Shown in pieces: positions 1,161 to 50,588 of a stretch of 64,000 bases of DNA. Source of the stretch: Methanothrix sp. (lineage in GTDB: Archaea; Halobacteriota; Methanosarcinia; Methanotrichales; Methanotrichaceae); NCBI GenBank assembly GCA_963682135.1, contig OY821645.1:1504001-1568000 (forward strand). Reading direction: 5' to 3'. Made by a program: the position numbers and the translations under genes. Positions within the stretch are counted from its first letter, which is position 1. Each line of letters opens with the position of its first letter. Under the pieces are notes generated by a model. The model was not told where the DNA came from. It saw only the letters and a list, made by a program, of their open reading frames with translations, and did not search any database.

Positions 1161-3182
1161 TCATTTAGCGACAGGACCATCGCAAAACTTCACCAGCAGC
1201 CTGGCATAAAACTCCCGCTCCGGCCCTTTGGTGGAGCGCACCAGCCTATCCAGTATCAGCTCCGGAGTGCTCTTGGCCAGATAGTTGTAGCGCGGGCTTC
1301 GGCTGACGCGCAGGTTGTTGTTCTCATCCAGACCCTCTGCCTCGATCCCATCGACGCGCACCGGCGTCTCAACGAAGCGTCTTATATCCTCGGCCAGGTG
1401 GCTGACGAAGACTGCCACGCAGCCGCGCCGATTCAACTCATCAAGCATGCAGGCGATTATGCGCGCTGAGGCGCCCGGCTCGGTGATGGACTCCAGCTCA
1501 TCCGCCAGGACGATCTTTCGCTTCTCATTCTCCACCACGGCAAACTTCTTCATGGCCGTCTCAAAGGCTCCGGCGGAGAGCGTGCCGCGGCTCTTGCTGA
1601 AGTAGTAAAACTCCTCAAAGAGAGAGAGTCGACAGGATTGGGCCGGCACGGGCAGGCCCATATGCGCCAGGATGACTATCTGGGAGATAAGGTCCAAAAG
1701 CGTGGTCTTGCCGCCCGAGTTCACGCCGCTGAGCAGCGCCACCTTCTCGGGGTGATCGGCGCTGCCGAGGGAGTAGCTCACTGGATCAGGCATCTCCAAG
1801 AAGAGATGACGGCCTTCTGCAAAGAAGAGGCACGGCTCCTTGGCGATCTCAGGGAAAGTGAGATTCTCTGCCAGGGCAAACCGCCCCAGTGCGTAGGCAT
1901 AGTCAAACTCCATCAGGGCATGCATGAGGGCAGCAGCCTCATCTCTTTTGTCTTGCAGGCCACGCGCGTTCTCTCTTTTCGTCTTCAAGCCCCGCCCTTC
2001 CCTGCGGCTTCGCAGCTCCTGCGCAAAAGAGCGCAGTGCCTGCCGATCTATCTCCAGAGGATAGCTGATCTGCGCAGAGAAGATCTCGTCCAGCCACACC
2101 GCCTCTGCTCCCACCAGTTCCAGCTCGCTCGTCGCTCGCGCCTTTGCGGCTTTCAGGACCTCTGCAAAGACGCTCTTCATCTGCACCTCCAATAGCTCTC
2201 GCACGCCCTCCCCCCTGCTCATGACCTGGAGCAGGTCCGTGCCGCCCAGGGTTAGCGAACTCTTCTCGATCTTACTCTTCAGCTCCTCATTGGCCCAGGT
2301 GGCCGCTTCCCCGACGCTCCCGCCCAGACGCGCTTCCAGTCTTCCCAGCCGTTCGCCTTCCTTATCCCCGCTCTCATTTAGCCTGGTGAGCAGTTTATGC
2401 AGGCTCTCCCATCCCGCAAATCCGGCAACTCCGGCTTCTTGCAGCTTTCTTGCCGCCTGGGCCGCCGCCTGCAGAGGCTCTAAATTCTCTTCATAAAATC
2501 CCAGGACCGCCTCGGGCACCAGATACCACTCCTCCAAAGACTCGGCCCGTTCCATATCCTCTGCCGCCTGCCCACCCATCTCTTCGCCTACCAGGCAGAC
2601 GTGGCTGTAGCTTTTGGCCAGGTCCGTTAGCTCCGCCGGGCTTTCTGCCAGATGCAGGTCGATCAGCCTGTCCAGCCCCATCGTCTTCAGCCTCTGAAAA
2701 TCCTCGGTAGAGGTGACGGCCACCGCTCTCTCCCGGACTCGCGCCGTCGCCTTCTCGCGCAGCGGCCGGATCTTTTTCAGCAGCCCCTCTAGGCCCAGGC
2801 CCTGCATCATCTGCGCAGCCTGGGCTGCCGCCAGGGCGGTTTTGCGATTCTCGGCCAGAAGCTGTGCAGAGGAAGAGGCAAACAGAGTGCCGATCTTGAG
2901 CCGAGCGTATTCGGTATGGGCATAGCTGGCCAGGCGGGTGATGAGCATCTGTTGAATTCTGCTCGCTTCATCCGTGGCCAGGAACTGCTCGGGCGTGACT
3001 GCGAACTTCAACCCCCTGGCATGCGAGACCAAGAAGAGAGCCTGGCGTTCGCTCAGCGCCCTGCACAGGCCTGCAACATCTGCGTTTAAAATCGCGTGCA
3101 GGGCTTTTTCTTCATCCCCATATTGCTCCAATAGGCGCTCTCTAATGCGAGAGCCCACACCAGGCAGATCTACCAGTTTCAA
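1161..3182 (-). CDS. Archaeal MutS2/MutS5-like ATPase (N-terminal HhH, C-terminal MutS domain V, no Smr)
   Basis: LPGVG HhH start; Walker A SGVNSGGKTT; SAGAFE signature; LADELESITEPGA; FVSH. Confidence 0.85.
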   Translation of the reverse strand: MKLVDLPGVGSRIRERLLEQYGDEEKALHAILNADVAGLCRALSERQALFLVSHARGLKFAVTPEQFLATDEASRIQQMLITRLASYAHTEYARLKIGTLFASSSAQLLAENRKTALAAAQAAQMMQGLGLEGLLKKIRPLREKATARVRERAVAVTSTEDFQRLKTMGLDRLIDLHLAESPAELTDLAKSYSHVCLVGEEMGGQAAEDMERAESLEEWYLVPEAVLGFYEENLEPLQAAAQAARKLQEAGVAGFAGWESLHKLLTRLNESGDKEGERLGRLEARLGGSVGEAATWANEELKSKIEKSSLTLGGTDLLQVMSRGEGVRELLEVQMKSVFAEVLKAAKARATSELELVGAEAVWLDEIFSAQISYPLEIDRQALRSFAQELRSRREGRGLKTKRENARGLQDKRDEAAALMHALMEFDYAYALGRFALAENLTFPEIAKEPCLFFAEGRHLFLEMPDPVSYSLGSADHPEKVALLSGVNSGGKTTLLDLISQIVILAHMGLPVPAQSCRLSLFEEFYYFSKSRGTLSAGAFETAMKKFAVVENEKRKIVLADELESITEPGASARIIACMLDELNRRGCVAVFVSHLAEDIRRFVETPVRVDGIEAEGLDENNNLRVSRSPRYNYLAKSTPELILDRLVRSTKGPEREFYARLLVKFCDGPVAK

Positions 3183-3283
3183 ACAGCCTCATTTTGTCAG
3201 GATTATAATATAATTGTTCCGCCAGTCATCCGGCGGAACGAATGCGATAAGATTGATATTCCGGGGCCAGAGAACAGGGAGGT

Positions 3284-4162
3284 GTGTTACTGAATCACCT
3301 ACTGAACCTGGGAGAGGATGAGGATATCTTTCTCGCAGAAGAGTCCTGGCAAGATCTGCTGGAGCTGCCCGTCACCAGAGAGATACTGCAGGATGATCTG
3401 GATGCAGATCTCTGCATTGAGGTCAAAGATATGGGGTTCGCCCTGCACCTATCTGAGCCGGCAGAGCTATGGCTGCTCCTCACAGATCATTATTCATCCC
3501 AAAAGATTTTGTCGGAGGAGGCAGAAAAATGGCGCTCGAAGATCACCAAAACGGTGCAGACAAATGAGATGGACTTTTTCTCGGCCCTGACGGAATATTT
3601 CTCCAATTCTCTGGCAGCAGAGCTTTTTTGCGAGAGCTGCTCTCTGAAAGGAGGGCCTCTTTATGTAGAAGAGAGGATCGAGAGGCTAATGCAGCTATTG
3701 CGACCGATACTTCCCAAAGACGAAAGCATACTGGAGATCTGCTGCGGCAGCGGCATGGCCACACAGGCGCTCATTCGTCAGGGGCATAGTCCCCTCTCGA
3801 TGGACAATGACCGCTGCGATCTATGCCAGGGTTTAAAGAGCGGGCTTGTGGACCCTAAGAGATGCTTCGTCCTGGATGCCAGGCTACTACCTAGTATCTT
3901 TCCAGACCGTTCTTTTCATACCGTTTTGGGATTTATGGTAGGGCTAATTGACGATTTCAACTGGCCGCTTTGGAGGGACATTCTCCTCAAATCCTCCCGC
4001 CTTGCGAAGAATAGGATTCTGTTTACCGTTTACACGCAAAAAGAAGCTGAACTCATCGCGAAAGCACTTGGGGATGCCGGGTGGAATGGTAAGGTAATCG
4101 ATAATCGCGACTCAAAGGGAATTTATGACCAGTGGGCCTATTTGGCAGAAAAGCAAGGATGA
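3284..4162 (+). CDS. Class I SAM-dependent methyltransferase
   Basis: Motif I ILEICCGSG; 292-aa ORF with upstream GGAGG. Confidence 0.75.
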   Translation: MLLNHLLNLGEDEDIFLAEESWQDLLELPVTREILQDDLDADLCIEVKDMGFALHLSEPAELWLLLTDHYSSQKILSEEAEKWRSKITKTVQTNEMDFFSALTEYFSNSLAAELFCESCSLKGGPLYVEERIERLMQLLRPILPKDESILEICCGSGMATQALIRQGHSPLSMDNDRCDLCQGLKSGLVDPKRCFVLDARLLPSIFPDRSFHTVLGFMVGLIDDFNWPLWRDILLKSSRLAKNRILFTVYTQKEAELIAKALGDAGWNGKVIDNRDSKGIYDQWAYLAEKQG

Positions 4163-4193
4163 ACGGAAAGGTTAATTACAGTTCCCAGTAGGG

Positions 4194-4334
4194 ATGAAAT
4201 CGGTGAGATTCTTGGCTGATTTTAAGAAAAGAAATACCGAGAGAAAGGGTGGCAAAAAAGAAGAGATTAAAAGCAAGAAGCTCATGGAAGATAACCTCGA
4301 TGACCTACGGGGTAGGGGAGAAGAAGTAAAATAA
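4194..4334 (+). CDS. Possible small Lys/Glu-rich protein (46 aa)
   Basis: Open frame MKSVRFLADFKKRNTERKGGKKEEIKSKKLMEDNLDDLRGRGEEVK; no recognisable family. Confidence 0.25.
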   Translation: MKSVRFLADFKKRNTERKGGKKEEIKSKKLMEDNLDDLRGRGEEVK

Positions 4335-4455
4335 ATCATTTTGTAGCAGCTTGCAGCAGGGGTTGTGCTGTCGTTTCGCTTTCCTGGTCGGATCAGCATA
4401 GGGCCATGGCACAATTAATGGAGATGGGATGCATCTTCACCATCTCTTCTTTGCT

Positions 4456-4851
4456 CTAGGAAGGCGTTACGCTTAATCCCCGACTTAACTCCTTGAGTTT
4501 CTCGATGCTCTCCTGTGTTTTGGCCGACTCTTTTCGCTTCTCATCCTCAAAGTGCTTTATGATTTCGTCTAAGGATATTGTAAGCCTGTAAACCTTCATG
4601 GGCCGACCCTTTCCGTCCTTCTTAATCTCTCTTTCTTCCACCCAATTGTTGCTGCGCAGCGTGCGCATAGCAATGCTTACCTCTGGTTGGCGCAGGTTCG
4701 ATCCGATCTCGATCTCCCGAGAGGTAGCCTCTTCCACATTGGCCAGATAGGTGATCATGCTGGCCACATTTCTGGGAATGTCAAGTTCTCGCAGAACCTC
4801 TACGAACTCCCGGTCGGCATCATCCAGAACTTTTACAGAGAATTGTCTCAT
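4456..4851 (-). CDS. Winged-HTH transcriptional regulator (ArsR/TrmB-like, methanogen type)
   Basis: SREIEIGSNLRQPEVSIAMRTL HTH and GKGRPMKVY wing. Confidence 0.85.
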   Translation of the reverse strand: MRQFSVKVLDDADREFVEVLRELDIPRNVASMITYLANVEEATSREIEIGSNLRQPEVSIAMRTLRSNNWVEEREIKKDGKGRPMKVYRLTISLDEIIKHFEDEKRKESAKTQESIEKLKELSRGLSVTPS

Positions 4852-5222
4852 AATAACCTCATTCTATTTTTGGATATAAGAAATACTCAATGATATAAAT
4901 AGTTTATTTCTCGACGTCTATTGTTCTGATCCTAAGATTATGCTGCAAATATGCAACTACGTAAAGATATTCCTTTCGCGCAATCATAATATATCTCGCT
5001 ATTCATAGATCCAAAAAAATGTAATTATTCCTGCTATTCGTGAGAGGGGCGAACCGGATAAATTCTAAAATTCTTATAACCCCTATTCTTATCTGAAACA
5101 TACAAAAACAAAAGCGTTAGATGGCTTCCAGTTGGCCATCCATAACTCGATAGGGCCCTGCAATATGCTTAAGCATCTCGCTGGTGCCAGGCGCAGGCAG
5201 AGTTGCAGCTGTTTAGACCTCT

Positions 5223-5762
5223 TTATTCCTCGAAAGCCGGTTCTTCCTCCTGGCTGTCGCTTTCACCTGCTAAATCAAAGTATCCGGAGATACGCACAAT
5301 GTCCAGCCGCGAGATCCGGTAAGCTCCGCCCTTCCGCTCCAATGGAGGATTGATCTCGATCTCCTGCAGGGTGATGCCCGTCTCTCCAGCTTTGTATCTC
5401 TGGAAGATCTGCCCCCAGGGAACCAGGTATGCAGTACGCGCTTTGCCGGCACCGTAGCGAAGCTCCACAGCCAAGATGCCCTGTCTTCCCGAACGGGTGA
5501 TGAAATCTGTCTCCCGCTTCATCTGATGCGCTCCGGCGGCAAGGCTGAAGTGCTGCTTGAAGTAGAGCGATTTTGTCTTGCGTGCATCCAGGCTCTTGCA
5601 TTCGATTGCCAGATAGTACTCTGGAGTCTTGGAGTCCACCAGTATGTCCATAAACTGGCCGGAGAAGCGTGATTGCTTTAGCCGGTAGGCAATGGCAGCG
5701 ATGCCATCCTTCTCGAAGAATGAGTTGAGGGCGCTTACCAGCGCCCACTCGAAGTCGGGCAT
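5223..5762 (-). CDS. PD-(D/E)xK nuclease, Holliday-junction resolvase-like (RecU/Hjc-like)
   Basis: FE near the N-terminus, MDILVD, AIECKS, downstream HQ motif. Confidence 0.65.
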   Translation of the reverse strand: MPDFEWALVSALNSFFEKDGIAAIAYRLKQSRFSGQFMDILVDSKTPEYYLAIECKSLDARKTKSLYFKQHFSLAAGAHQMKRETDFITRSGRQGILAVELRYGAGKARTAYLVPWGQIFQRYKAGETGITLQEIEINPPLERKGGAYRISRLDIVRISGYFDLAGESDSQEEEPAFEE

Positions 5763-5887
5763 TGTTTATTGTTTTCTGCGGATCTCTAAAAATATCTTTT
5801 CCTCTGATTACTTTCGCTCCGCACCCATTCCTCTCCTTTAATAACCCGTAAAAGAATCCTTTCCGGTGCGCTCTTCTGGAGGCAGCA

Positions 5888-6094
5888 ATGGTAGTGGGAA
5901 GGACTCTGTGGGACTTTGTTATTGAGGCATTTCGAACGCCGGGCGTGGGACTCATCCTCATAGCCCTGCTTATATTATTTGAAATTATATTGATATTAAT
6001 ACTATTATTAGCACATAATGGCCTCCTCGACATTAAATTCAGCTATGGCGGCCTGGGTCTGGAGCTGGGCCAATTTGCTGCCCTTCTGGCATGA
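5888..6094 (+). CDS. Small membrane protein
   Basis: GGAGG RBS before ATG; one long hydrophobic helix. Confidence 0.55.
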   Translation: MVVGRTLWDFVIEAFRTPGVGLILIALLILFEIILILILLLAHNGLLDIKFSYGGLGLELGQFAALLA

Positions 6095-6173
6095 GACTGC
6101 AAATAACAGTCCATCTAAGCAAAGCCTCCGTTCCTGAAGAAACTTAATGTATCATGCAGAAAAATGTGACCTC

Positions 6174-6329
6174 ATGGATATTGAGGAGATCGCCAGGAAG
6201 TACAGTATGAGGGAGCTGAAGCCTGTTGCCAAGAAATTCGGTATTGGAACACGCTGCGTCAAAAAAATAGATATCATCAAGGCATTTCCGCCGGAGGCGC
6301 TGGCGGAGTTGACAGGCGGGCGGCAATAA
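6174..6329 (+). CDS. Small helical protein, Rho-N/SAP-like (alternative start 6147)
   Basis: KYSMRELKPVAKKFGI...KKIDIIKA helix-extended-helix pattern; 17 bp upstream of thyA. Confidence 0.55.
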   Translation: MDIEEIARKYSMRELKPVAKKFGIGTRCVKKIDIIKAFPPEALAELTGGRQ

Positions 6330-6346
6330 AAATCAGGTGCTTTTTC

Positions 6347-7012
6347 ATGGCGAGAATGGGGAGATTCATTCGGGCGAAAACCATCTCCGATGCCTGGCAG
6401 AGGGGCCTATGCCTTATCTGGAGGCAGGGGGCAGAGATCACTGATGAGAGAGGCACCAGGATAAGGGAAATCCTATCGTTGCAGGTAGTGGTGGAGGACC
6501 CCTACCGGGAGATGATTCCCGCCCAGTACTCCTGGAATGAGGAACGTCTGGAAGAGTACGCCTCGCAACTCTTATCCGGCGAGAATCCTGGATTTGAGTA
6601 CACCTACGGAGAGCGCCTGCGTGCCTGGCATCTGCCGGGCATGCCCGCACTGGATCAGATCGAGCAGGTTATCTTGCGGCTCAGGGCCTCGGCCAATACG
6701 CGCCGGGCAACAGCCGTAACCTGGATCGTGCCCATAGACGCAGCCAAAGATGAGGTTCCCTGCATGATTGTGGACGACTTCAAGCTGCGCGATGGTCGCC
6801 TGCACCTGTCGATCTTCTTTCGCAGTCACGACTTTGCCGGAGCGTATCCTGCCAATCTCTACGGTCTGGCCAGGCTGCTACAATATGTCAGCCGCGAGAT
6901 AGGAGCTGAGCCGGGATCGATCTCGACCACCAGCGCTTCCGCGCATATCTACGAGCATGATTGGGACTTTGTGGAGAAGATGCTGCAGGAGGAGATTGTG
7001 GAGAATATTTGA
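6347..7012 (+). CDS. thyA: Archaeal thymidylate synthase family protein
   Basis: FEYTYGERL, NTRRA, VPCM (catalytic Cys), FRSHD, YPAN, SAHIYE. Confidence 0.9.
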   Translation: MARMGRFIRAKTISDAWQRGLCLIWRQGAEITDERGTRIREILSLQVVVEDPYREMIPAQYSWNEERLEEYASQLLSGENPGFEYTYGERLRAWHLPGMPALDQIEQVILRLRASANTRRATAVTWIVPIDAAKDEVPCMIVDDFKLRDGRLHLSIFFRSHDFAGAYPANLYGLARLLQYVSREIGAEPGSISTTSASAHIYEHDWDFVEKMLQEEIVENI

Positions 7013-7089
7013 AACTATTTGGCCAAGGGATGGACCAGGAATAAAGCACCGCAAAGAATATCTGCTTCTATCGAGATTTTCCTTCGTTT

Positions 7090-8112
7090 ATGGTCGATAG
7101 CCTGTTGATGATCAAGGCCGAGGAGATCCTGGAAAAGATCGAGAAGGGCAAACCGGTAGAGTATGAAAACGTAATCATCTATGGCGACCTGGATCTGCAC
7201 CGGCTGGATTTACCATTCAATAGAGCCAAGCAAAGAATCGTAAAATCAATAATAAAAATCGAATACTCGGTCATCAAGGGCGATGTATTCTTCGATCACG
7301 CAGCCTTCGCCGGGCTGGTGGACTTTGACGGCACATCTTTCACCGAGGCGGCCAACTTCTCAGGGTCTCACTTTCAGGAGGATGCCGGCTTTTCCGATGC
7401 GCAATTTCAAAGAGAGGCCAACTTCACCAGATCTCACTTTGCCATCGATGCCAATTTCTCTAGGGCCAAGTTCAATGATGCCGACTTTGGCCGGGCGAGG
7501 TTTGATAAATATTTTCATCTGGCCAATGCCAAGGTATACACATTAAATCTATCGGATGCGATCTTCTCGGACGGATCGAGCATCCACCTCAAGGACTTCA
7601 ATTTCAGCCGAATGGTCGTCCGCTGGAATATCATCAAAGAGCACATCCCCTTTAACGGTTCTGTGTACCTGACGCTCACCAGAAACTTTCGAAACCTGGA
7701 GCAGTTCGAGGACCAGGACGACTGCTATTATCAATATCGAAAGGAAAAGCAGTCGCTATCTCACAAATTCTTCCCCAAGTTCTTCGATTATTTGGCATGG
7801 ATCTCCTGCGGCTACGGAGTTCGTCCTTCCCATACCATTCTTCTCAGTCTGGCCATAATTCTATTCTTCGCAGGGATCTTTTGGGCAGGAAACGCTCTTT
7901 CGCCGGACGCTATGGGCGTGCATTCACAAGTGAAGGCGATCGTATCGACCAATGATGCGTTCTATTTCAGCAGCATGGAGTTTTTGGGCAAGACTCCCCA
8001 GAATTTCAGCATCATTGAGGGCTATGAGGTCCTGACGGTGATAGAGACGCTGCTTGGGTGGCTGCTTATGGCCCTCTTTCTGGTGACACTCAGCCGGGTG
8101 ATGTTGAGGTAA
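7090..8112 (+). CDS. Pentapeptide-repeat protein with C-terminal 2TM ion-channel-like domain
   Basis: xAxF repeats (ANFSGSHF, ANFTRSHF); GYGVRP; TM, then DAFYFSSMEF pore helix, then ETLLGWLLMALFLVTLSR. Confidence 0.8.
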   Translation: MVDSLLMIKAEEILEKIEKGKPVEYENVIIYGDLDLHRLDLPFNRAKQRIVKSIIKIEYSVIKGDVFFDHAAFAGLVDFDGTSFTEAANFSGSHFQEDAGFSDAQFQREANFTRSHFAIDANFSRAKFNDADFGRARFDKYFHLANAKVYTLNLSDAIFSDGSSIHLKDFNFSRMVVRWNIIKEHIPFNGSVYLTLTRNFRNLEQFEDQDDCYYQYRKEKQSLSHKFFPKFFDYLAWISCGYGVRPSHTILLSLAIILFFAGIFWAGNALSPDAMGVHSQVKAIVSTNDAFYFSSMEFLGKTPQNFSIIEGYEVLTVIETLLGWLLMALFLVTLSRVMLR

Positions 8113-45032: not shown

Positions 45033-46016
45033 TTATTTCGGCCTGGCTGTACAAGTCTCCCTGAACTGGGCCGCCAGGCAGAGGATCTCAAACATAATCG
45101 TGGCTCCGGCCAGAGCCGTAATCCCTCCGGCATCGTAAGGTGGTGCCACCTCCACCAGATCCCCGCCGATGACATTCAGCCCGGATAGGCCCCGCAAGAC
45201 CTGGAGGGCCTCAAAGCTGCTCATGCCACCGACCACCGGGGTTCCGGTACCTGGGGCAAAGGCCGGGTCCAGGCAGTCAATGTCGAAGGAGATGTAGACC
45301 GGACCGTCACCCACCAGGCTCCTGATCTCCGAGATTACTTTTCTCCAACCCAGCTCATAGAACTCTTCGATATGAATTACTCTCATGCCGCTATCGTAAG
45401 AGAACTGCCAGAGCAGCTCAGCCGTGCCGCGAATGCCGATCTGCACCGTGCGCTTTGGGTCCACCAGCCCTGCCTCAACGGCATTTCTCATGGGGCAGCC
45501 ATGCTGCAATCCGCTTCCGTGGAAAGGTGCCGACGTATCGCAATGCGAGTCGAAATGGATGAGCCCGACCTTCTCTTTTGGAGAGAGGCCTTTGAGAATG
45601 GGAAAGGTTATGGAGTGATCCCCGCCCGCGGTTATGGCCAGGACATTGGCTGATGACAATTTCCTGTAGAATGATTCGATATCCGCGTGAGCCTCTTTCA
45701 GATCATACGTGGTCTGAAACGGCACGTCTCCAGCGTCCGCTACTCGATGAGTGGCAAAGGGCGACATGCGGCTGTAGTGGTTGTAGACACCCACCAGCCG
45801 GGACTGGTTTCGGATCTCCCGCGGGCCCAGGCGCGTGCCGCTGCGGTTGGTCACGCCCAGGTCAAAGGGCACGCCCACCAAAGCAATGTCCAGGCCGCTC
45901 GTCTCCCGCTGGTAGGGCGCACCGAAGAATGTGGTGATGCCGCTGTAAGGGGGCTGCATCATCTCGGGCGCGAAGGTCTTTGCGATCTCTGCGAGCCTTT
46001 TCAATTTATCGTCCAT
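45033..46016 (-). CDS. speB: Agmatinase/ureohydrolase (arginase family)
   Basis: GVPFD, GGDHSI, DSHCD, HG, SFDIDCLDPAFAPGTGTP, DLVEV; exact substrate uncertain. Confidence 0.85.
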   Translation of the reverse strand: MDDKLKRLAEIAKTFAPEMMQPPYSGITTFFGAPYQRETSGLDIALVGVPFDLGVTNRSGTRLGPREIRNQSRLVGVYNHYSRMSPFATHRVADAGDVPFQTTYDLKEAHADIESFYRKLSSANVLAITAGGDHSITFPILKGLSPKEKVGLIHFDSHCDTSAPFHGSGLQHGCPMRNAVEAGLVDPKRTVQIGIRGTAELLWQFSYDSGMRVIHIEEFYELGWRKVISEIRSLVGDGPVYISFDIDCLDPAFAPGTGTPVVGGMSSFEALQVLRGLSGLNVIGGDLVEVAPPYDAGGITALAGATIMFEILCLAAQFRETCTARPK

Positions 46017-46064
46017 AACATTTCACCGTAGATTCCTGCGCGAATGTACCGCCACTTTTTTTCA

Positions 46065-46316
46065 CTATCTATACGCCTTGCTGCGATTTTTTATTCGCAA
46101 TATCAATACTCCGTCCTGTTTCTTGGAATAGACGACCCGGTAATCTCCAATGCGCAGCTTGAAAAGTCCTTTGAACTGTCCGGTGAGCGCCTCTCCGCAG
46201 TCCGGGTTACAGGATAACTCCTCTTCCAGTTCTTTGATTACTCTCTTAGCAACCGACTTATCCAGATTCTTCAGGTCGTGGGCCACAGATGATTTGTACT
46301 CAATCAGGCAGGCCAA
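46065..46316 (-). CDS. RelE/ParE-family toxin
   Basis: LTGQFKGLFKLRIGDYRVVY...R..AY. Confidence 0.9.
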   Translation of the reverse strand: MACLIEYKSSVAHDLKNLDKSVAKRVIKELEEELSCNPDCGEALTGQFKGLFKLRIGDYRVVYSKKQDGVLILRIKNRSKAYR

Positions 46317-46533
46317 GAAGCACCCTCATCTCTTCGCTAGATACCACGTTGTCGTTTTTATCGTTCAAACGCTCCTGGGCAATCAGGTAATCTGAATAAT
46401 CCTCAAGATATGCCTGCAACGCTTTCTTGATGATATACGCCTTGGAGCGATCTATGGTTTCAGAAAGGCTCTTCAGGCTATCTGCCATGTCGTCTGGAAG
46501 CCTGATCGATACTGATGTGGAGATCCTAATCAC
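46300..46533 (-). CDS. RHH antitoxin (RelB-like)
   Basis: VSIRLPD...RSKAYIIKKAL..YLEDYSDY; overlaps the toxin start. Confidence 0.88.
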   Translation of the reverse strand: MIRISTSVSIRLPDDMADSLKSLSETIDRSKAYIIKKALQAYLEDYSDYLIAQERLNDKNDNVVSSEEMRVLLGLPD

Positions 46534-46653
46534 CTTGTATTACAATGAATTACAAATATATCAATGTCTCTACGTTCTGGCATAAGCCCACAAGGGCCTT
46601 GATGATATGGCTCTTGCTAGCATTGGACCGGATATGAAGTTGGTTAATCATGA

Positions 46654-47760
46654 TCATACTATATCCCAAAATAGGATGAACCAACAGCTTCCTGGTCCGC
46701 GAACGGCAGGTTTCCCATCGGCACCATAATTCATCATGATGAATTCGACCGTTTTTCCTACTTGATTGCCAAATTCTTCATAGACGAGATTCGTTTGTAT
46801 CACCGTTCTTGCTGCTGCTGTGTCTCGAATCCCGTTGAACTCAAATGATTGCAGGTGCTTCGAATTATATATTTCTCTTATGCGCGCAGGCATTGCATTT
46901 TTATTGTCGCCAGAATTCAATAAGATGCAATCAGCCATGGTACGGTAATCCGGCCTAGCCTTTTTCCAGTCTGAAAGGAACTCTGCGAGCTTCCTTTCTG
47001 GCGTCCCTTTTTCATAATCATCTGGGCCTCCGGTTGCGGGAATATTTTGGCCGAGTTTAATAACCCTTGGTTTCCATTCTTGCAGCTTTAGCTTCTCTGC
47101 TTCGTCATTGATGAACTGCGTGATCACTTGACTCAACGTTATTGGCTTTTCCGGAGGTTTTGGATCTAGTTTTAGAGTTTCCACTTCTACTGGGCCACGG
47201 GCTGCGGGGATATTTTGGCCGGGTTTAATAATTCTTGGTCTCCATTCTTGCAGCTTTAGCTTCTCTGTTTCGTTATCGTTGATGGGCTTGATCACTTGAC
47301 TCCAAGATATTGGCTGTTCCAGAGGGTTTGGGTCTAGTTTTAAAGTTTCCACTTCTTCTCGCAGGCAAGCTGTCTGGAGATCTGCATAAGCCTTCTCATT
47401 TGGCACCCTCCAGTCAATGTGTGCGAACTGGGCGATGACATCGGGCGGATTACAGTCAGCGATAAGGAGCGGGATAAAACGGCGCTGGGCATTGGTCGGA
47501 TCACGGAAGAGCAGGGTGTAGTGCTCCAGTTTTCCCCATTCGGAGGCGAAATAATCTCGGGACATGCACATGAGGAGAGTGCAGGACTGCTCAATGCCGT
47601 GCTGTATTTTTAGGGGAATCAAATCCCCTGGCTTGATGACCCAGTCGTCCAGCCAGACTCGCAGGCCATCTTTTTTCAAGCGCTCGGCCAGAGAATGGAC
47701 GATCTTCCTGTCTTTAGAACTGTAGCTGAGAAAAACGTCATATTCGAACTCACTGCTCAT
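46654..47760 (-). CDS. TIR-domain protein with duplicated 56-aa linker and unknown C-terminal domain
   Basis: YDVFLSYSSKD...LRVWLD...SEWGKLE...FIPL. Confidence 0.88.
   Translation of the reverse strand: MSSEFEYDVFLSYSSKDRKIVHSLAERLKKDGLRVWLDDWVIKPGDLIPLKIQHGIEQSCTLLMCMSRDYFASEWGKLEHYTLLFRDPTNAQRRFIPLLIADCNPPDVIAQFAHIDWRVPNEKAYADLQTACLREEVETLKLDPNPLEQPISWSQVIKPINDNETEKLKLQEWRPRIIKPGQNIPAARGPVEVETLKLDPKPPEKPITLSQVITQFINDEAEKLKLQEWKPRVIKLGQNIPATGGPDDYEKGTPERKLAEFLSDWKKARPDYRTMADCILLNSGDNKNAMPARIREIYNSKHLQSFEFNGIRDTAAARTVIQTNLVYEEFGNQVGKTVEFIMMNYGADGKPAVRGPGSCWFILFWDIV
47022..47356. repeat. 168-bp intragenic tandem duplication (56 aa) in the TIR gene
   Basis: gtttccacttct at 47177 and 47345; protein units EVETLKLDP...EKLKLQEW(R/K)PR.IK.GQNIPA. 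Confidence 0.85.
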
Positions 47761-47804
47761 TGCTCAATCGCCTTCGTTTCTGCCCCGCAAGTTTTGCTTG
47801 CGCC

Positions 47805-48611
47805 CTATTCACTTTCTTGGTCAAATAATCCTTGCTCAGCTTTCATAGCCCAATCGCGGATAGAAAACAGCGCCGCCCAAGCTTTTGCGGCGACCATCTT
47901 ATTATCGTAGCCAAGATCCATGCCGTGCAGTATGCCGTTTCGATACGGGATGGTTATCTGATCTGATGTTGTTTTATAGCGACCTTTATTGAAAACCCCA
48001 GCCAGTGATTTCAATCCTTTGCTATGGCCAGAGATAGAATTCCATGCATCCATGTTAGCATTTTCGACAAAGAAGCCGAGTTTCGATCCTCTTCCTTTCT
48101 CGTGCGCGTCATTGACTATTCCATTAAGCAGAGCAAGAACAACAGGGACACAAGCATGATAACGCGCCTCACGATAATCAATTCGTGCCTTTTGTGCCAG
48201 ATGCCACCTTGCGCTGAATGCATCCACACGTTTCATATTCTTTATATTCCACCCAACTTTCTCGTCATCATAGTAATTTACAAGGTCAGTTTCGGCACCA
48301 TCAATATCCCCCGACTCTGCTTTCTTTATCGCAGCCTTAGCAACTTCAAGATTCATAAGTTCATAGATGATCCAGCCGCGCTCTGCGAATAGATCATTGA
48401 ATCGATCTGGGATCGATGCCAGCTCTTCAGCCGAGCTACTTAGCGCCTCTACCTTTGCCAGCTCTAAATCGATTTTATCCACCTCAATTCCAAATTGCTT
48501 TAAGAATGGTTTTAAAAGAGGCAAAGCGTCTTTCGCATTTTTAAGATTTTGAATGTCTCGAATTGGCTTGTTAATTGTTGGTATATCCCGAATGCTTGGC
48601 TCTTTTTCCAT
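47805..48611 (-). CDS. Hypothetical protein with HEPN-type RxxxxH motif
   Basis: YRNGILHG preceded by the helix YHACVPVVLALLNG; AT-rich; start MEKEPS (ORF track start 48641). Confidence 0.65.
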   Translation of the reverse strand: MEKEPSIRDIPTINKPIRDIQNLKNAKDALPLLKPFLKQFGIEVDKIDLELAKVEALSSSAEELASIPDRFNDLFAERGWIIYELMNLEVAKAAIKKAESGDIDGAETDLVNYYDDEKVGWNIKNMKRVDAFSARWHLAQKARIDYREARYHACVPVVLALLNGIVNDAHEKGRGSKLGFFVENANMDAWNSISGHSKGLKSLAGVFNKGRYKTTSDQITIPYRNGILHGMDLGYDNKMVAAKAWAALFSIRDWAMKAEQGLFDQESE

Positions 48612-48698
48612 AGTATTTCGCCTGGAATCGCACTCTGACAATCTATAACAAATTGATTCGTTGTCTTGCGAATTATGTCATTGTTCGGGGAGGGACTA

Positions 48699-48875
48699 TT
48701 ACATCTCCCATCCCACATCGTACCTCGCCCCGCACTCCGGGCAGATGAGAATGATCTTGTAACCATCCTCAGCCCGCTGAAAAGAGCTGTGAAAGCCCAG
48801 CTCATAGCCGCATTGCGGACAGACCCTAAACTCTTCTCCCAGTTCTACCTTAACAATCTCTTCAGAAGCTTTCAT
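48699..48875 (-). CDS. Small CPxCG zinc-ribbon protein (58 aa; missed by the ORF track)
   Basis: MKASEEIVKVELGEEFRVCPQCGYELGFHSSFQRAEDGYKIILICPECGARYDVGWEM; AGGTGA RBS. Confidence 0.85.
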   Translation of the reverse strand: MKASEEIVKVELGEEFRVCPQCGYELGFHSSFQRAEDGYKIILICPECGARYDVGWEM

Positions 48876-48901: not shown

Positions 48902-49735
48902 TCATGCATCATCTTCTTCTTCCTTCATCATAACATAATCGCCTATGTACCTGTGGCAGTGCGGGCAGATCATCTTCTTCCGATGCTTCTCTTTTCTTCT
49001 CTGCAACACCTCGTTGAATCCCGAGGCCAGAATGCCTGCCGGAAGGGCAAACAGGCCGACTCCTGCTATTACCACAAAAGAGCCTATGAATTTCCCTAGC
49101 GGCGTCTTGGGATAGATATCTCCGTAGCCCACAGTGGTCAGGGTGACCACTCCCCACCACATGGCATCGGGAATGTTGGCAAAAGCCTCCGGTTGAACCT
49201 CGTTCTCTGCTTCATAGACCATGCTGGATGCTACCGTGAGCATAATCAGGGTGGCAAACAATGTCACACCCAGCTCTTCCTTCTTGAGGTTGAGGACTTC
49301 GGCAAATGTCTTGAGCGCATCGGAATACCTGGCCAGCTTCAAGATCCGGAAGAGACGGAAGAGGCGTAAGGCTCGAACGAAGCGCAGGTCCGGGATGACG
49401 AATGGAAGGTAGAAGGGCAGTATGGCCAATAGATCAATAATCGCCATGGGAGTAATAAGATAGCGCAGCCTCCCCGAAATGGGCGCTCTGAACTTGGGAT
49501 TTTCGGTGCAGCTCCAGGCGCGCAGGATGTATTCCACTGTGAAGATTGCGACGGAAAAGAGATCGAAGGCACGAAATAGCCGCCCATAACTGGCATTAAT
49601 CCAGTCTACCGTCTCCAGGACCACAGCGGCTACGTTTAATACTATCAGTATCGTTATGAATGGATCGAAGTACTTGCTGTCTTCGTCACCCGGCTCTAGT
49701 ATGCCGAAGATTCGCGTCTTGAGCTTCATATTCAT
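48902..49735 (-). CDS. 6TM voltage-gated potassium channel
   Basis: S4 RFVRALRLFRLFRILKLAR; filter TTVGYGD; C-terminal CPHC. Confidence 0.95.
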   Translation of the reverse strand: MNMKLKTRIFGILEPGDEDSKYFDPFITILIVLNVAAVVLETVDWINASYGRLFRAFDLFSVAIFTVEYILRAWSCTENPKFRAPISGRLRYLITPMAIIDLLAILPFYLPFVIPDLRFVRALRLFRLFRILKLARYSDALKTFAEVLNLKKEELGVTLFATLIMLTVASSMVYEAENEVQPEAFANIPDAMWWGVVTLTTVGYGDIYPKTPLGKFIGSFVVIAGVGLFALPAGILASGFNEVLQRRKEKHRKKMICPHCHRYIGDYVMMKEEEDDA

Positions 49736-49787: not shown

Positions 49788-50588
49788 TTATGGGCCATCT
49801 TCGCCGTCCACTCTCTCCTGAGCATCCTTCTCCTCCCGCCGCCGCTCCAGCTCATCCACGAAACCGGATGTGAGAATCGACGTGGGCAGCGCGAAGGTGG
49901 CCACGCCTAGAATTATGATCAGCCCGCCTGCCAGCTTTCCCAGAGGAGTTATGGGGTAGAAATTGTCTCCGACGGTGGTCATGGTCAGCACCGCCCACCA
50001 CATGGTGGCAGGTATGTCAGGAAAACGGTGGGGCTGCGCTTCATGCTCCAGGAAATAGATCAAAGTCGAGGACAGCACCATGAAGAACATGATGGCTGAG
50101 AAACTCATGATCAGCTCGCGCTGTTGGGCGCGAATCACATCCATTATGGTCTGCAGGGACTCGGAGTAGCGGCTGAGCTTGAGCAGCCGGAAGGTCCAGA
50201 GAACGCGAAGGCTTCGCAGGAGAATATGATCTGCGGGAAAGGCCAGGGCAGCTAAGGTTGGCAATATTACCAGGAGGTCTATCAGCGCCAACGGAGTCAG
50301 TGCGAAGCGAAGCCGTCCCGAAAATGGAGGCCTGTATTTGGGGTCCACATCGCATGACCAGATGCGCAAAATGTATTCGATGGTGAAAATTATCACAGAG
50401 ATATCTGCGAAGTAATGAAACAGAACTTTATGGGCCGCATAGATGCTCTCCACAGTCTCCAGGACCACGGCGGTGACATTGAGGACCACCAGTACCAGCA
50501 TAAAGAGATTTACCGCCTCAGCGGTTTTATCCTCGGCATCGGTCGACTCCAGGATCTCATAAATGCGGACCTTGTAGCTTCTGGTCAT
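49788..50588 (-). CDS. 6TM Kv-like channel paralogue with non-canonical filter (TVGDN)
   Basis: S4 RSLRVLWTFRLLKLSR; pore WWAVLTMTTVGDNFYP. Confidence 0.9.
   Translation of the reverse strand: MTRSYKVRIYEILESTDAEDKTAEAVNLFMLVLVVLNVTAVVLETVESIYAAHKVLFHYFADISVIIFTIEYILRIWSCDVDPKYRPPFSGRLRFALTPLALIDLLVILPTLAALAFPADHILLRSLRVLWTFRLLKLSRYSESLQTIMDVIRAQQRELIMSFSAIMFFMVLSSTLIYFLEHEAQPHRFPDIPATMWWAVLTMTTVGDNFYPITPLGKLAGGLIIILGVATFALPTSILTSGFVDELERRREEKDAQERVDGEDGP

Follow-up and report, generated by a model that had tools for sequence, protein, structure and literature searches.

Comparison with described systems

Effectors built on a TIR domain are among the described systems closest to the locus presented here. 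In AbTIR, W204 and E208 form the WxxxE motif and the change E208A abolishes the NADase activity, according to the excerpted text of PMC10641520. AbTIR-type effectors and the Thoeris protein ThsB share a TIR_2 domain with this glutamate, and a further class joins the TIR domain to WD40, TPR or SUMF1 parts (TIR-WD40, TIR-TPR and TIR-SUMF1 proteins). Among HEPN proteins, DUF4209 overlaps the C6orf70 family, which is listed as a HEPN family with a conserved motif in the excerpted text of Anantharaman et al. 2013 (PMC3710099). We have analysed four genes found at positions 46065 to 48611 of a stretch of 64,000 nucleotides from the archaeon Methanothrix sp. (assembly GCA_963682135.1, contig OY821645.1, positions 1,504,001 to 1,568,000), which as a whole is called the window. 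These genes had been proposed, from the letters alone, to form an antiviral cassette in which a HEPN-motif protein (open reading frame A, ORF A) acts together with a chimeric TIR protein (ORF B) and a RelBE toxin-antitoxin (TA) pair. The alignments indicate instead that the apparent TIR/HEPN pair is a single gene of ~430 amino acids (aa) cut in two by an inserted TIR module, and the RelBE pair is a separate and variable neighbour, not a component.

ORF B resembles the known TIR effectors in its first part. Pfam PF13676 (TIR_2) matched it with an E-value of 1.2e-26 and 94 bits against a cut-off of 28, and PF01582 with 28.7 against 21.3. The EWGKLE of ORF B aligns with DWTNYE of AbTIR, W75 and E79 being the W and E of the motif; the domain thereby appears to keep a catalytic-type glutamate and is a candidate NADase. 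The likeness to Thoeris does not go beyond this domain, as the ThsB models of PADLOC gave weak matches (E 5e-6 and weaker), the NCBIfam score for Thoeris was 24 against a cut-off of 220 (47 against 600 for retron-TIR) and the neighbours are the N-domain ORF, the RelBE pair, a zinc-ribbon ORF, ion channels and an arginase, with no ThsA-type partner (SIR2/SLOG or Macro) among them. One PADLOC candidate, PDC-S66, was rejected, with residues 3-97 of ORF B matching model positions 145-239 of 282, that is, the TIR part alone. The TIR-WD40, TIR-TPR and TIR-SUMF1 class is 65-81% identical to the TIR of ORF B; in comparison with it, ORF B has lost the WD40 part, in whose place stand a linker and an NTF2-like domain from an unrelated gene.

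Origin of ORF A and ORF B

By sequence search ORF A has 799 relatives, almost all of which are 420-440 aa long and free of Pfam domains; their C-terminal ~170 aa match the C-terminus of ORF B. When one of these relatives (P0004, 433 aa) was compared with the window's own genome, which is complete in one contig of 3,043,341 bp, its residues 1-268 fell on ORF A and its residues 259-433 on ORF B, with residues 257-313 matching ORF B a second time. The same search found no intact copy of the family gene in this genome. From the three-piece match and the shared C-termini it follows that one ancestral gene has been divided into ORF A, as its first half, and the final ~175 residues of ORF B, as its second. 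ORF A is 87-94% identical to residues 1-263 of P0004 and P0002 (433-434 aa). Its open frame as called covers 47805-48641; the relatives begin at MEKEP, and because of this the start was placed at the ATG at 48611. ORF A itself had no match in Pfam, NCBIfam, PHROGs or PADLOC.

Most of what the original prediction had read directly from the letters was confirmed (Table 1). The four ORFs are all on the minus strand, with 44 bp between the stop of ORF A and the start of ORF B, and the R-x4-H motif, a TIR domain that has the WxxxE glutamate and the ribbon-helix-helix/RelE pair are present. The stretch is indeed AT-rich, with a GC content of 0.43-0.50 over 46000-48750 compared to 0.55-0.65 in the flanks. 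Calling the TIR protein chimeric was apt, and the absence of a matching named system agrees with the PADLOC check, which gave matches at the level of the TIR domain only. The sequence 46060-48650 was found unbroken and with 0 differences in contigs from two runs of two studies (X1 and X3), one of which may be the source of the Methanothrix genome itself, and is no assembly artefact. A search of sequencing runs for the stretch gave no RNA data set.

Table 1. Coordinates of the features of the locus, in window positions
Feature	Position	Strand	Description
ORF A	47805..48611	-	268 aa; helical N-domain half of the ancestral ~430-aa gene
R224-N-G-I-L-H229 codons in ORF A	47925..47942	-	R-x4-H motif
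Left junction	47819..47826	-	8-nt microhomology; intact-gene sequence passes into TIR-WD40 leader (alignment)
Inserted fragment	47339..47826	-	~487 bp; 66 nt of donor leader, TIR module and first linker residues
ORF B	46654..47760	-	368 aa; TIR (residues 1 to ~136), linker twice, NTF2-like C-domain
TIR domain of ORF B	47386..47736	-	Pfam TIR_2, residues 9-125
Candidate catalytic E79 of ORF B	47524-47526	-	in SEWGKLE
Tandem duplication	47017..47352	-	2 x 168 bp; TRF 47022-47356, period 168, 85% matches
NTF2-like alpha+beta domain of ORF B	46657..47013	-	corresponds to residues ~315-433 of the intact family
RelB-like ribbon-helix-helix antitoxin	46300..46533	-	Pfam RHH_1, NCBIfam
RelE/ParE-family toxin	46065..46316	-	Pfam ParE_toxin, NCBIfam; 17-nt overlap with the antitoxin ORF

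The inserted TIR module

The insertion was delimited against donor-type genes and against loci in synteny from related assemblies of Methanothrix and Methanotrichaceae. At the DNA level, locus L017 is collinear with the window from 53000 to 47819, continues with 47166-46770 and then passes to an arginase gene, and it contains neither the TIR module nor the RelBE pair. On the other side, a genus-wide DNA search found the TIR module, leader included, in L097 (83% identity over 47826-47364), L098 (77% over 47835-47354) and L102 (85% over 47826-47614), the ORFs of the first two being TIR-WD40 proteins. The closest TIR protein, P0123 (81% identity), reads ...REEVETLKPKVG ahead of its WD40 repeats, and ORF B reads ...REEVETLKLDPNP at the place where P0123 has REEVETLKPKVG.

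By BLAST, the intact relatives reach 47819 and the donors begin at 47826. Because the crossover lay inside this microhomology of 8 nucleotides, the insertion was an illegitimate recombination and not the work of a transposon; no transposase, integrase or inverted repeat involved in it was found. ORF A takes its final four codons and its stop from the donor leader within the insert (47761-47826), in which a conserved purine-rich element precedes the ATG of ORF B by 10-17 nt. A hairpin in this leader was considered and rejected, its RNA fold being no better than that of shuffled sequences (z 0.21). The TIR part of the insert ends with ...REEVETLK, and beyond it the ancestral sequence resumes at the LDP codons. 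Each of the two 168-bp units of the tandem duplication combines the donor-derived VETLK with 51 ancestral linker codons, and they differ at 27 of 168 nucleotides. As each unit starts with the donor-type VETLK, the duplication is later than the insertion. Taken together, the alignments show a gene split by a TIR graft, a junction that was duplicated afterwards and a RelBE pair that is independent of both.

In a search of 5.8 billion clusters, no scored candidate apart from ORF B itself matched ORF B over its full length; the remaining matches covered either the TIR part (TIR-WD40, TIR-SUMF1 and TIR-TPR proteins) or the C-terminal part (the 433-aa family). The window's own genome does not contain the donor, because the best TIR paralogue of ORF B there is only 53% identical. 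This genome (G000) has at least four further loci with a TIR domain, of 28-53% identity to that of ORF B (C1:1235861-1236271, 2250433-2250723, 545706-545930 and 649851-650177), one of them with an in-frame TAG.

The ~430-aa parent family

The parent gene belongs to a large, undescribed and stand-alone family that spans bacteria and archaea. Using contigs from a collection of 185,579 species with one genome per species, it was found at 317 of 328 candidate stretches, in hosts that include Methanothrix, haloarchaea, Acidobacteria, cyanobacteria, Paenibacillus and Chloroflexi, among others. A profile of the N-domain core matched the representatives of 1,685 clusters (50% identity) at E<=1e-3 and of 477 at <=1e-30, and the best 150 of these 1,685 were all family members. 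Within a sample of the genus the distribution is patchy, with a family match in 6 of 24 genomes. The family had no match in Pfam, NCBIfam or PADLOC, and a literature search found no HEPN-NTF2 protein and no account of a ~430-aa family of this kind; nothing on it was found in the excerpted text of PMC7159879 either.

The AF2 models (pLDDT 81 and pTM 0.53 for P0004, pLDDT 85 and pTM 0.81 for ORF A) predict an N-domain made of helices, joined by a linker helix to a C-domain in which helices are followed by a long curved sheet. The C-domain thus has the arrangement of an NTF2-like fold, in which helices precede a curved antiparallel sheet, and its resemblance to NTF2-like and SnoaL-like domains (YchJ/SEC-C-associated and ketosteroid isomerase-like) lies in the fold, with only 6-15% identity and no sequence-family match. 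The N-domain has 14 invariant columns over 72 sequences, including R135, D145, R150, R211, P222, R224, G226, I227, H229, G230, K243 and W245.

Is the N-domain HEPN-like?

R224 and H229 of the RNGILH motif are invariant in 44 of 44 and in 72 of 72 family members, down to ~43% identity, and the family consensus R-N-G-I-[LM]-H-G conforms to the HEPN R-x4-6-H motif. A chance R-x4-H is expected, by a rough estimate, in about one protein in four of 268 aa, and the motif is therefore meaningful because both residues are invariant across the family and not because it is present once. Judged by this conservation, it is evidently a real and strongly constrained motif. Members of the HEPN superfamily are typified by metal-independent RNase activity and by a four-helix up-down core whose last helix begins with such a motif. 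The model of ORF A is all-helical, with the motif in a low-confidence loop (residues 218-228), eight residues before a helix (237-259).

Fold comparisons gave leads of little weight. Foldseek searches of the PDB with the full-length and N-domain models found no match to the N-domain (best E 4.3), the N-domain rows of a VIA-wide fold search covered residues 1-69 only, an N-terminal hairpin, and the list obtained in the same search with the full-length model was filled by the NTF2 domain. In BFVD the top Foldseek match of the N-domain was a phage DUF4209 protein (E 7.6e-3, TM 0.42, 275 columns). In the ESM Atlas the nearest clusters are unnamed (0.96-0.97), and the nearest named ones (0.77-0.81: DUF7207, SEC-C, ATP-cone, DUF4145 and, at 0.77, DUF4209) can be taken as leads only.

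At the sequence level, Pfam on 44 members gave nothing relevant, with PF13910 (DUF4209) in 0 of 44 at E<=1, and PDB profile searches with two alignments (A1 and A3) gave nothing or chance matches. We also compared the family by hhalign with small home-made alignments of DUF4145, PF05168 and DUF4209. Against DUF4145 the probability was 0.3%, in a test that has little power because DUF4145 and PF05168, two accepted HEPN families, also failed against each other. With the same low power, PF05168 gave 7.5%, on a stretch outside the motif, and 53 DUF4209 proteins, cut to their C-terminal 200 residues, gave 0.8% (P 0.066). The collinear path in the latter, which is not significant, places YRNGILHG over LRNxIAHG and RYHACVPVV over ALHxLxPQ, and this signal was gone with the full-length template (0.8-1.2% across both).

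Three weak pointers, from BFVD, the Atlas and hhalign, thus agree on DUF4209. The C6orf70/DUF4209 proteins have, like the N-domain, an all-helical domain with R-N-x-x-x-H-G followed by an aromatic-rich helix; unlike the family, they have ~600 aa, with a long TPR-like N-terminus and without an NTF2 domain. On balance we consider that the chances of the N-domain being HEPN-like are about even. A real HEPN-TIR adjacency was seen in one proteobacterial genome, where a DUF4209 (C6orf70-type HEPN) protein (L145, 19-1878) is convergent with a TIR-domain gene (1875-2858) and overlaps it by 4 nucleotides; it is a single case.

Genomic context

The family gene stands alone, because the commonest neighbour family was found in just 5 of 80 loci. 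The 146 immediate neighbours in 75 loci include XisI and Uma2 (three each), Schlafen/AlbA_2, DUF4238, AAA_15/21 and DUF5677 (two each), together with ParE, PIN, RHH, KAP NTPase, HsdM, an Eco57I-type enzyme, an MTES_1575 helicase, Fic, Rap1a, an integrase fragment and four transposase-type genes.

The RelBE pair of the window is a type II TA module with nothing unusual about it, an antitoxin followed by an overlapping toxin, both of them above the NCBIfam cut-offs (NF048017 antitoxin_RelB_like 53.1 against 50 and TIGR02385 RelE_StbE 28.7 against 27.9); in Pfam, RHH_1 scored 30.2 bits and ParE_toxin 46.7 bits. Its adjacency to the family gene is only occasional: L043 has the same pair next to its intact gene (DNA identity of 86% over window positions 47170-46066), and L016, L017 and L018 lack it, at odds with its proposed role as a component of the cassette. 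Just upstream of the intact gene, L016 has a remnant of 69 bp (6811-6879) with 83% identity to the relB-like part of the window (46325-46392), which suggests a lost or moved TA module. Upstream of ORF A there is an ORF of 58 aa with a double zinc ribbon (48699-48875, minus strand) followed by two paralogous Ion_trans channel genes (48902-49735 and 49788-50588, both on the minus strand); their synteny is kept with L017, L018 and L043, and they are outside the variable stretch.

Genes of RNA repair (RtcB, Ro60-vWA, RlaP and Thg1) were found within 7 kb in 6 of 80 loci, a figure that corresponds to about four independent cases, three of the loci (L041, L049 and L057) being from related Acidobacteria. 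In L027 the family gene lies between an upstream MazF toxin and a downstream RtcB. Ro60-vWA directly precedes it in L041 and in L057, the latter with RtcB as well, while L049 has an RtcB fragment directly upstream and L051 a Ro60-like gene. The sixth, L094, has a co-oriented and tightly packed run (1764-7157) of an AAA_33 kinase, a Thg1-like gene, an unknown gene, a 2OG-Fe(II) oxygenase, two RlaP genes and the family gene, whose gene order suggests an RNA-repair operon with the family gene at its end. Such neighbours fit an RNA-directed activity of the family but are no proof of it.

Gene turnover and selection

The nearest relatives of the two halves of the split gene are not the same. ORF A shares 95% identity with L017 and 68% with L043; for the NTF2 part the figures are 82% with L016 and L043 and 57% with L017. 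This implies past recombination between alleles at the linker. Extra partial copies of the N-domain (residues ~62-266, 58-60% identical) are located directly upstream of the intact gene in L018 and L043 (6338-6955) and in G024, where the extra N-domain and the intact gene are in one frame of 666 aa (L004/L010, G024:C6:9909-11861). Two proteins of 645-648 aa (P0234 and P0235) have two N-domains each, and P0014 starts with a fragment of the end of the N-domain. In L051 (2687-3993) and L054 (148-1316) a frameshift at or near the linker leaves an N-only and a C-only ORF, which could be a naturally split form, a pseudogene or an error of the metagenome-assembled genome. In G020 the final 76 family residues are matched on their own, in a frame of 84 aa (L009, G020:C1:498677-498904) that is probably a remnant.

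Both ORFs have the substitution pattern of constrained genes. Between ORF A and L017 the nonsynonymous (dN) and synonymous (dS) distances were 0.023 and 0.214, a ratio of 0.11. The ratio was 0.18-0.31 for the NTF2 part (0.18 against L016) and 0.09-0.14 for the TIR against donor-type genes, compared to 0.10 between donors. For the tandem linker copies dN was 0.172 and dS 0.212, a ratio of 0.81 on 38 synonymous sites. In a neutral simulation with ~0.105 substitutions per site, which assumes that the divergence of the repeats (dS 0.21) dates the event, ORF A stayed open 3% and ORF B 1% of the time. A prediction of the complex between ORF A and residues 193-368 of ORF B scored 0.10 against a mark of 0.32.

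Proposed mechanism and competing explanations

The explanation that we consider best overall is that of a split gene with a grafted TIR, both of whose ORFs are in use and whose parent is a conflict or stress effector; we put its probability at about 0.7. A fragment of ~487 bp with the leader and TIR module of a TIR-WD40 gene was joined into the inter-domain linker of the ~430-aa gene, and 168 bp across the new TIR/linker junction underwent tandem duplication afterwards. The outcome is a free N-domain (ORF A, with a stop from the insert) and a TIR-linker-linker-NTF2 protein with its own start and leader. The parent family may be a self-contained effector, in which the NTF2-like domain would serve as a sensing or assembly module and the N-domain as a HEPN-like and probably RNA-directed effector. 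By the rearrangement the same NTF2-like module would then have come to control a TIR that cleaves NAD+, and the N-domain would have been set free, in what would amount to a swap or an addition of effector modules. ORF A and ORF B would both be in use and co-transcribed from the old promoter, and ORF B on activation would deplete NAD+ or make a cADPR-type signal. That the N-domain is directed to RNA is a guess from the invariant R224/H229, the RNA-repair neighbours and the DUF4209 fold match. The narrower proposal, that the family is a one-protein RNA-targeting defence or abortive-infection system in which an NTF2-like sensor of an infection cue activates a divergent HEPN-like RNase, is put forward very tentatively, as we hold it to be more probably wrong than right by some distance.

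Several observations weigh against the explanation preferred overall. The chimera was seen in one strain, and the two data sets that contain it are identical to the window and represent no independent lineage. The frameshifts of L051 and L054 lie at or near the same linker, so that decay at this spot evidently occurs; the linker copies are near-neutral and have few synonymous sites, so that the estimate of age is rough; and the low dN/dS could for the most part be older than the insertion. Selection would be expected to act against a free toxic N-domain, the profile comparisons with the HEPN families were not significant, and the RNA-repair context is limited to six loci, three of them related. 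Some of these points favour a dead gene, in which the insertion disrupted a dispensable gene, leaving ORF A and ORF B as non-functional remnants open by chance, and so do the lone C-terminal remnant in G020, the ratio of 0.81 in the linker copies and the patchy presence of the family in the genus. Against this, both ORFs are intact (807 and 1,107 nt), for which the neutral odds are 0.03 x 0.01, the dN/dS of ORF A, the NTF2 part and the TIR is low, and the start codon, the purine-rich leader, E79 and R224/H229 have all been retained. We consider a dead gene unlikely, and favour two ORFs still in use over dead remnants by roughly three to one, on these estimates.

The family could also be an accessory of RNA repair or quality control, or have another housekeeping or stress function, the TIR graft then being irrelevant to immunity. 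The six loci with RtcB, Ro60-vWA, RlaP or Thg1 point in this direction, as does the lack of a PADLOC match, but this context is confined to those 6 of 80 loci, and the other neighbours are of restriction-modification, TA, Schlafen/AlbA_2, AAA_15/21, KAP NTPase, transposase and integrase type; in addition, the patchy spread, mosaic alleles and partial tandem copies fit a conflict gene of fast turnover, and we regard an accessory function as rather improbable. The dedicated and conserved abortive-infection cassette of the original prediction, with HEPN RNase, TIR protein and RelBE working together, has in its favour the tight co-oriented genes, the catalytic-type glutamate of the TIR, the invariant R-x4-H and the TA modules that often adjoin the family gene (ParE in L024, PIN in L053, RHH in L043 and MazF in L027). 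None of the 146 immediate neighbours in 75 family loci has a TIR, however, and the neighbourhood survey, chosen beforehand as the test that could refute the TIR and HEPN pair, finds essentially no co-occurrence elsewhere. No neighbour family exceeds 5 of 80 loci, the TIR is a recent graft from a TIR-WD40 gene, RelBE comes and goes between related loci and PADLOC matches no system past the TIR domain, which leaves such a cassette very hard to credit.

Significance

The annotation of the locus is corrected by these results, as there is no conserved TIR-plus-HEPN cassette at this position and what is observed is a one-off domain shuffle in one archaeon. The components belong to known kinds, namely a TIR effector attached to a putative sensor domain of foreign origin and a protein bearing a HEPN motif. 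With its junctions resolved to the base, the locus offers a natural case of an effector domain grafted, together with its own leader and start codon, onto what is probably the sensor domain of another gene. The family itself, with its HEPN-type motif, NTF2-like domain, mosaic alleles and neighbours of the defence, TA, mobile and RNA-repair kinds, is a reasonable candidate for a new single-gene conflict system. If it were a one-protein system that targets RNA, this would explain the copies that stand beside the RtcB, Ro60 and RlaP genes of RNA repair. The window would then have captured an exchange of effectors in progress, in which the same sensor drives a TIR NADase and the old effector is kept as a separate gene, and would provide a working example of how defence genes may trade effector modules through microhomology-mediated recombination at a linker.

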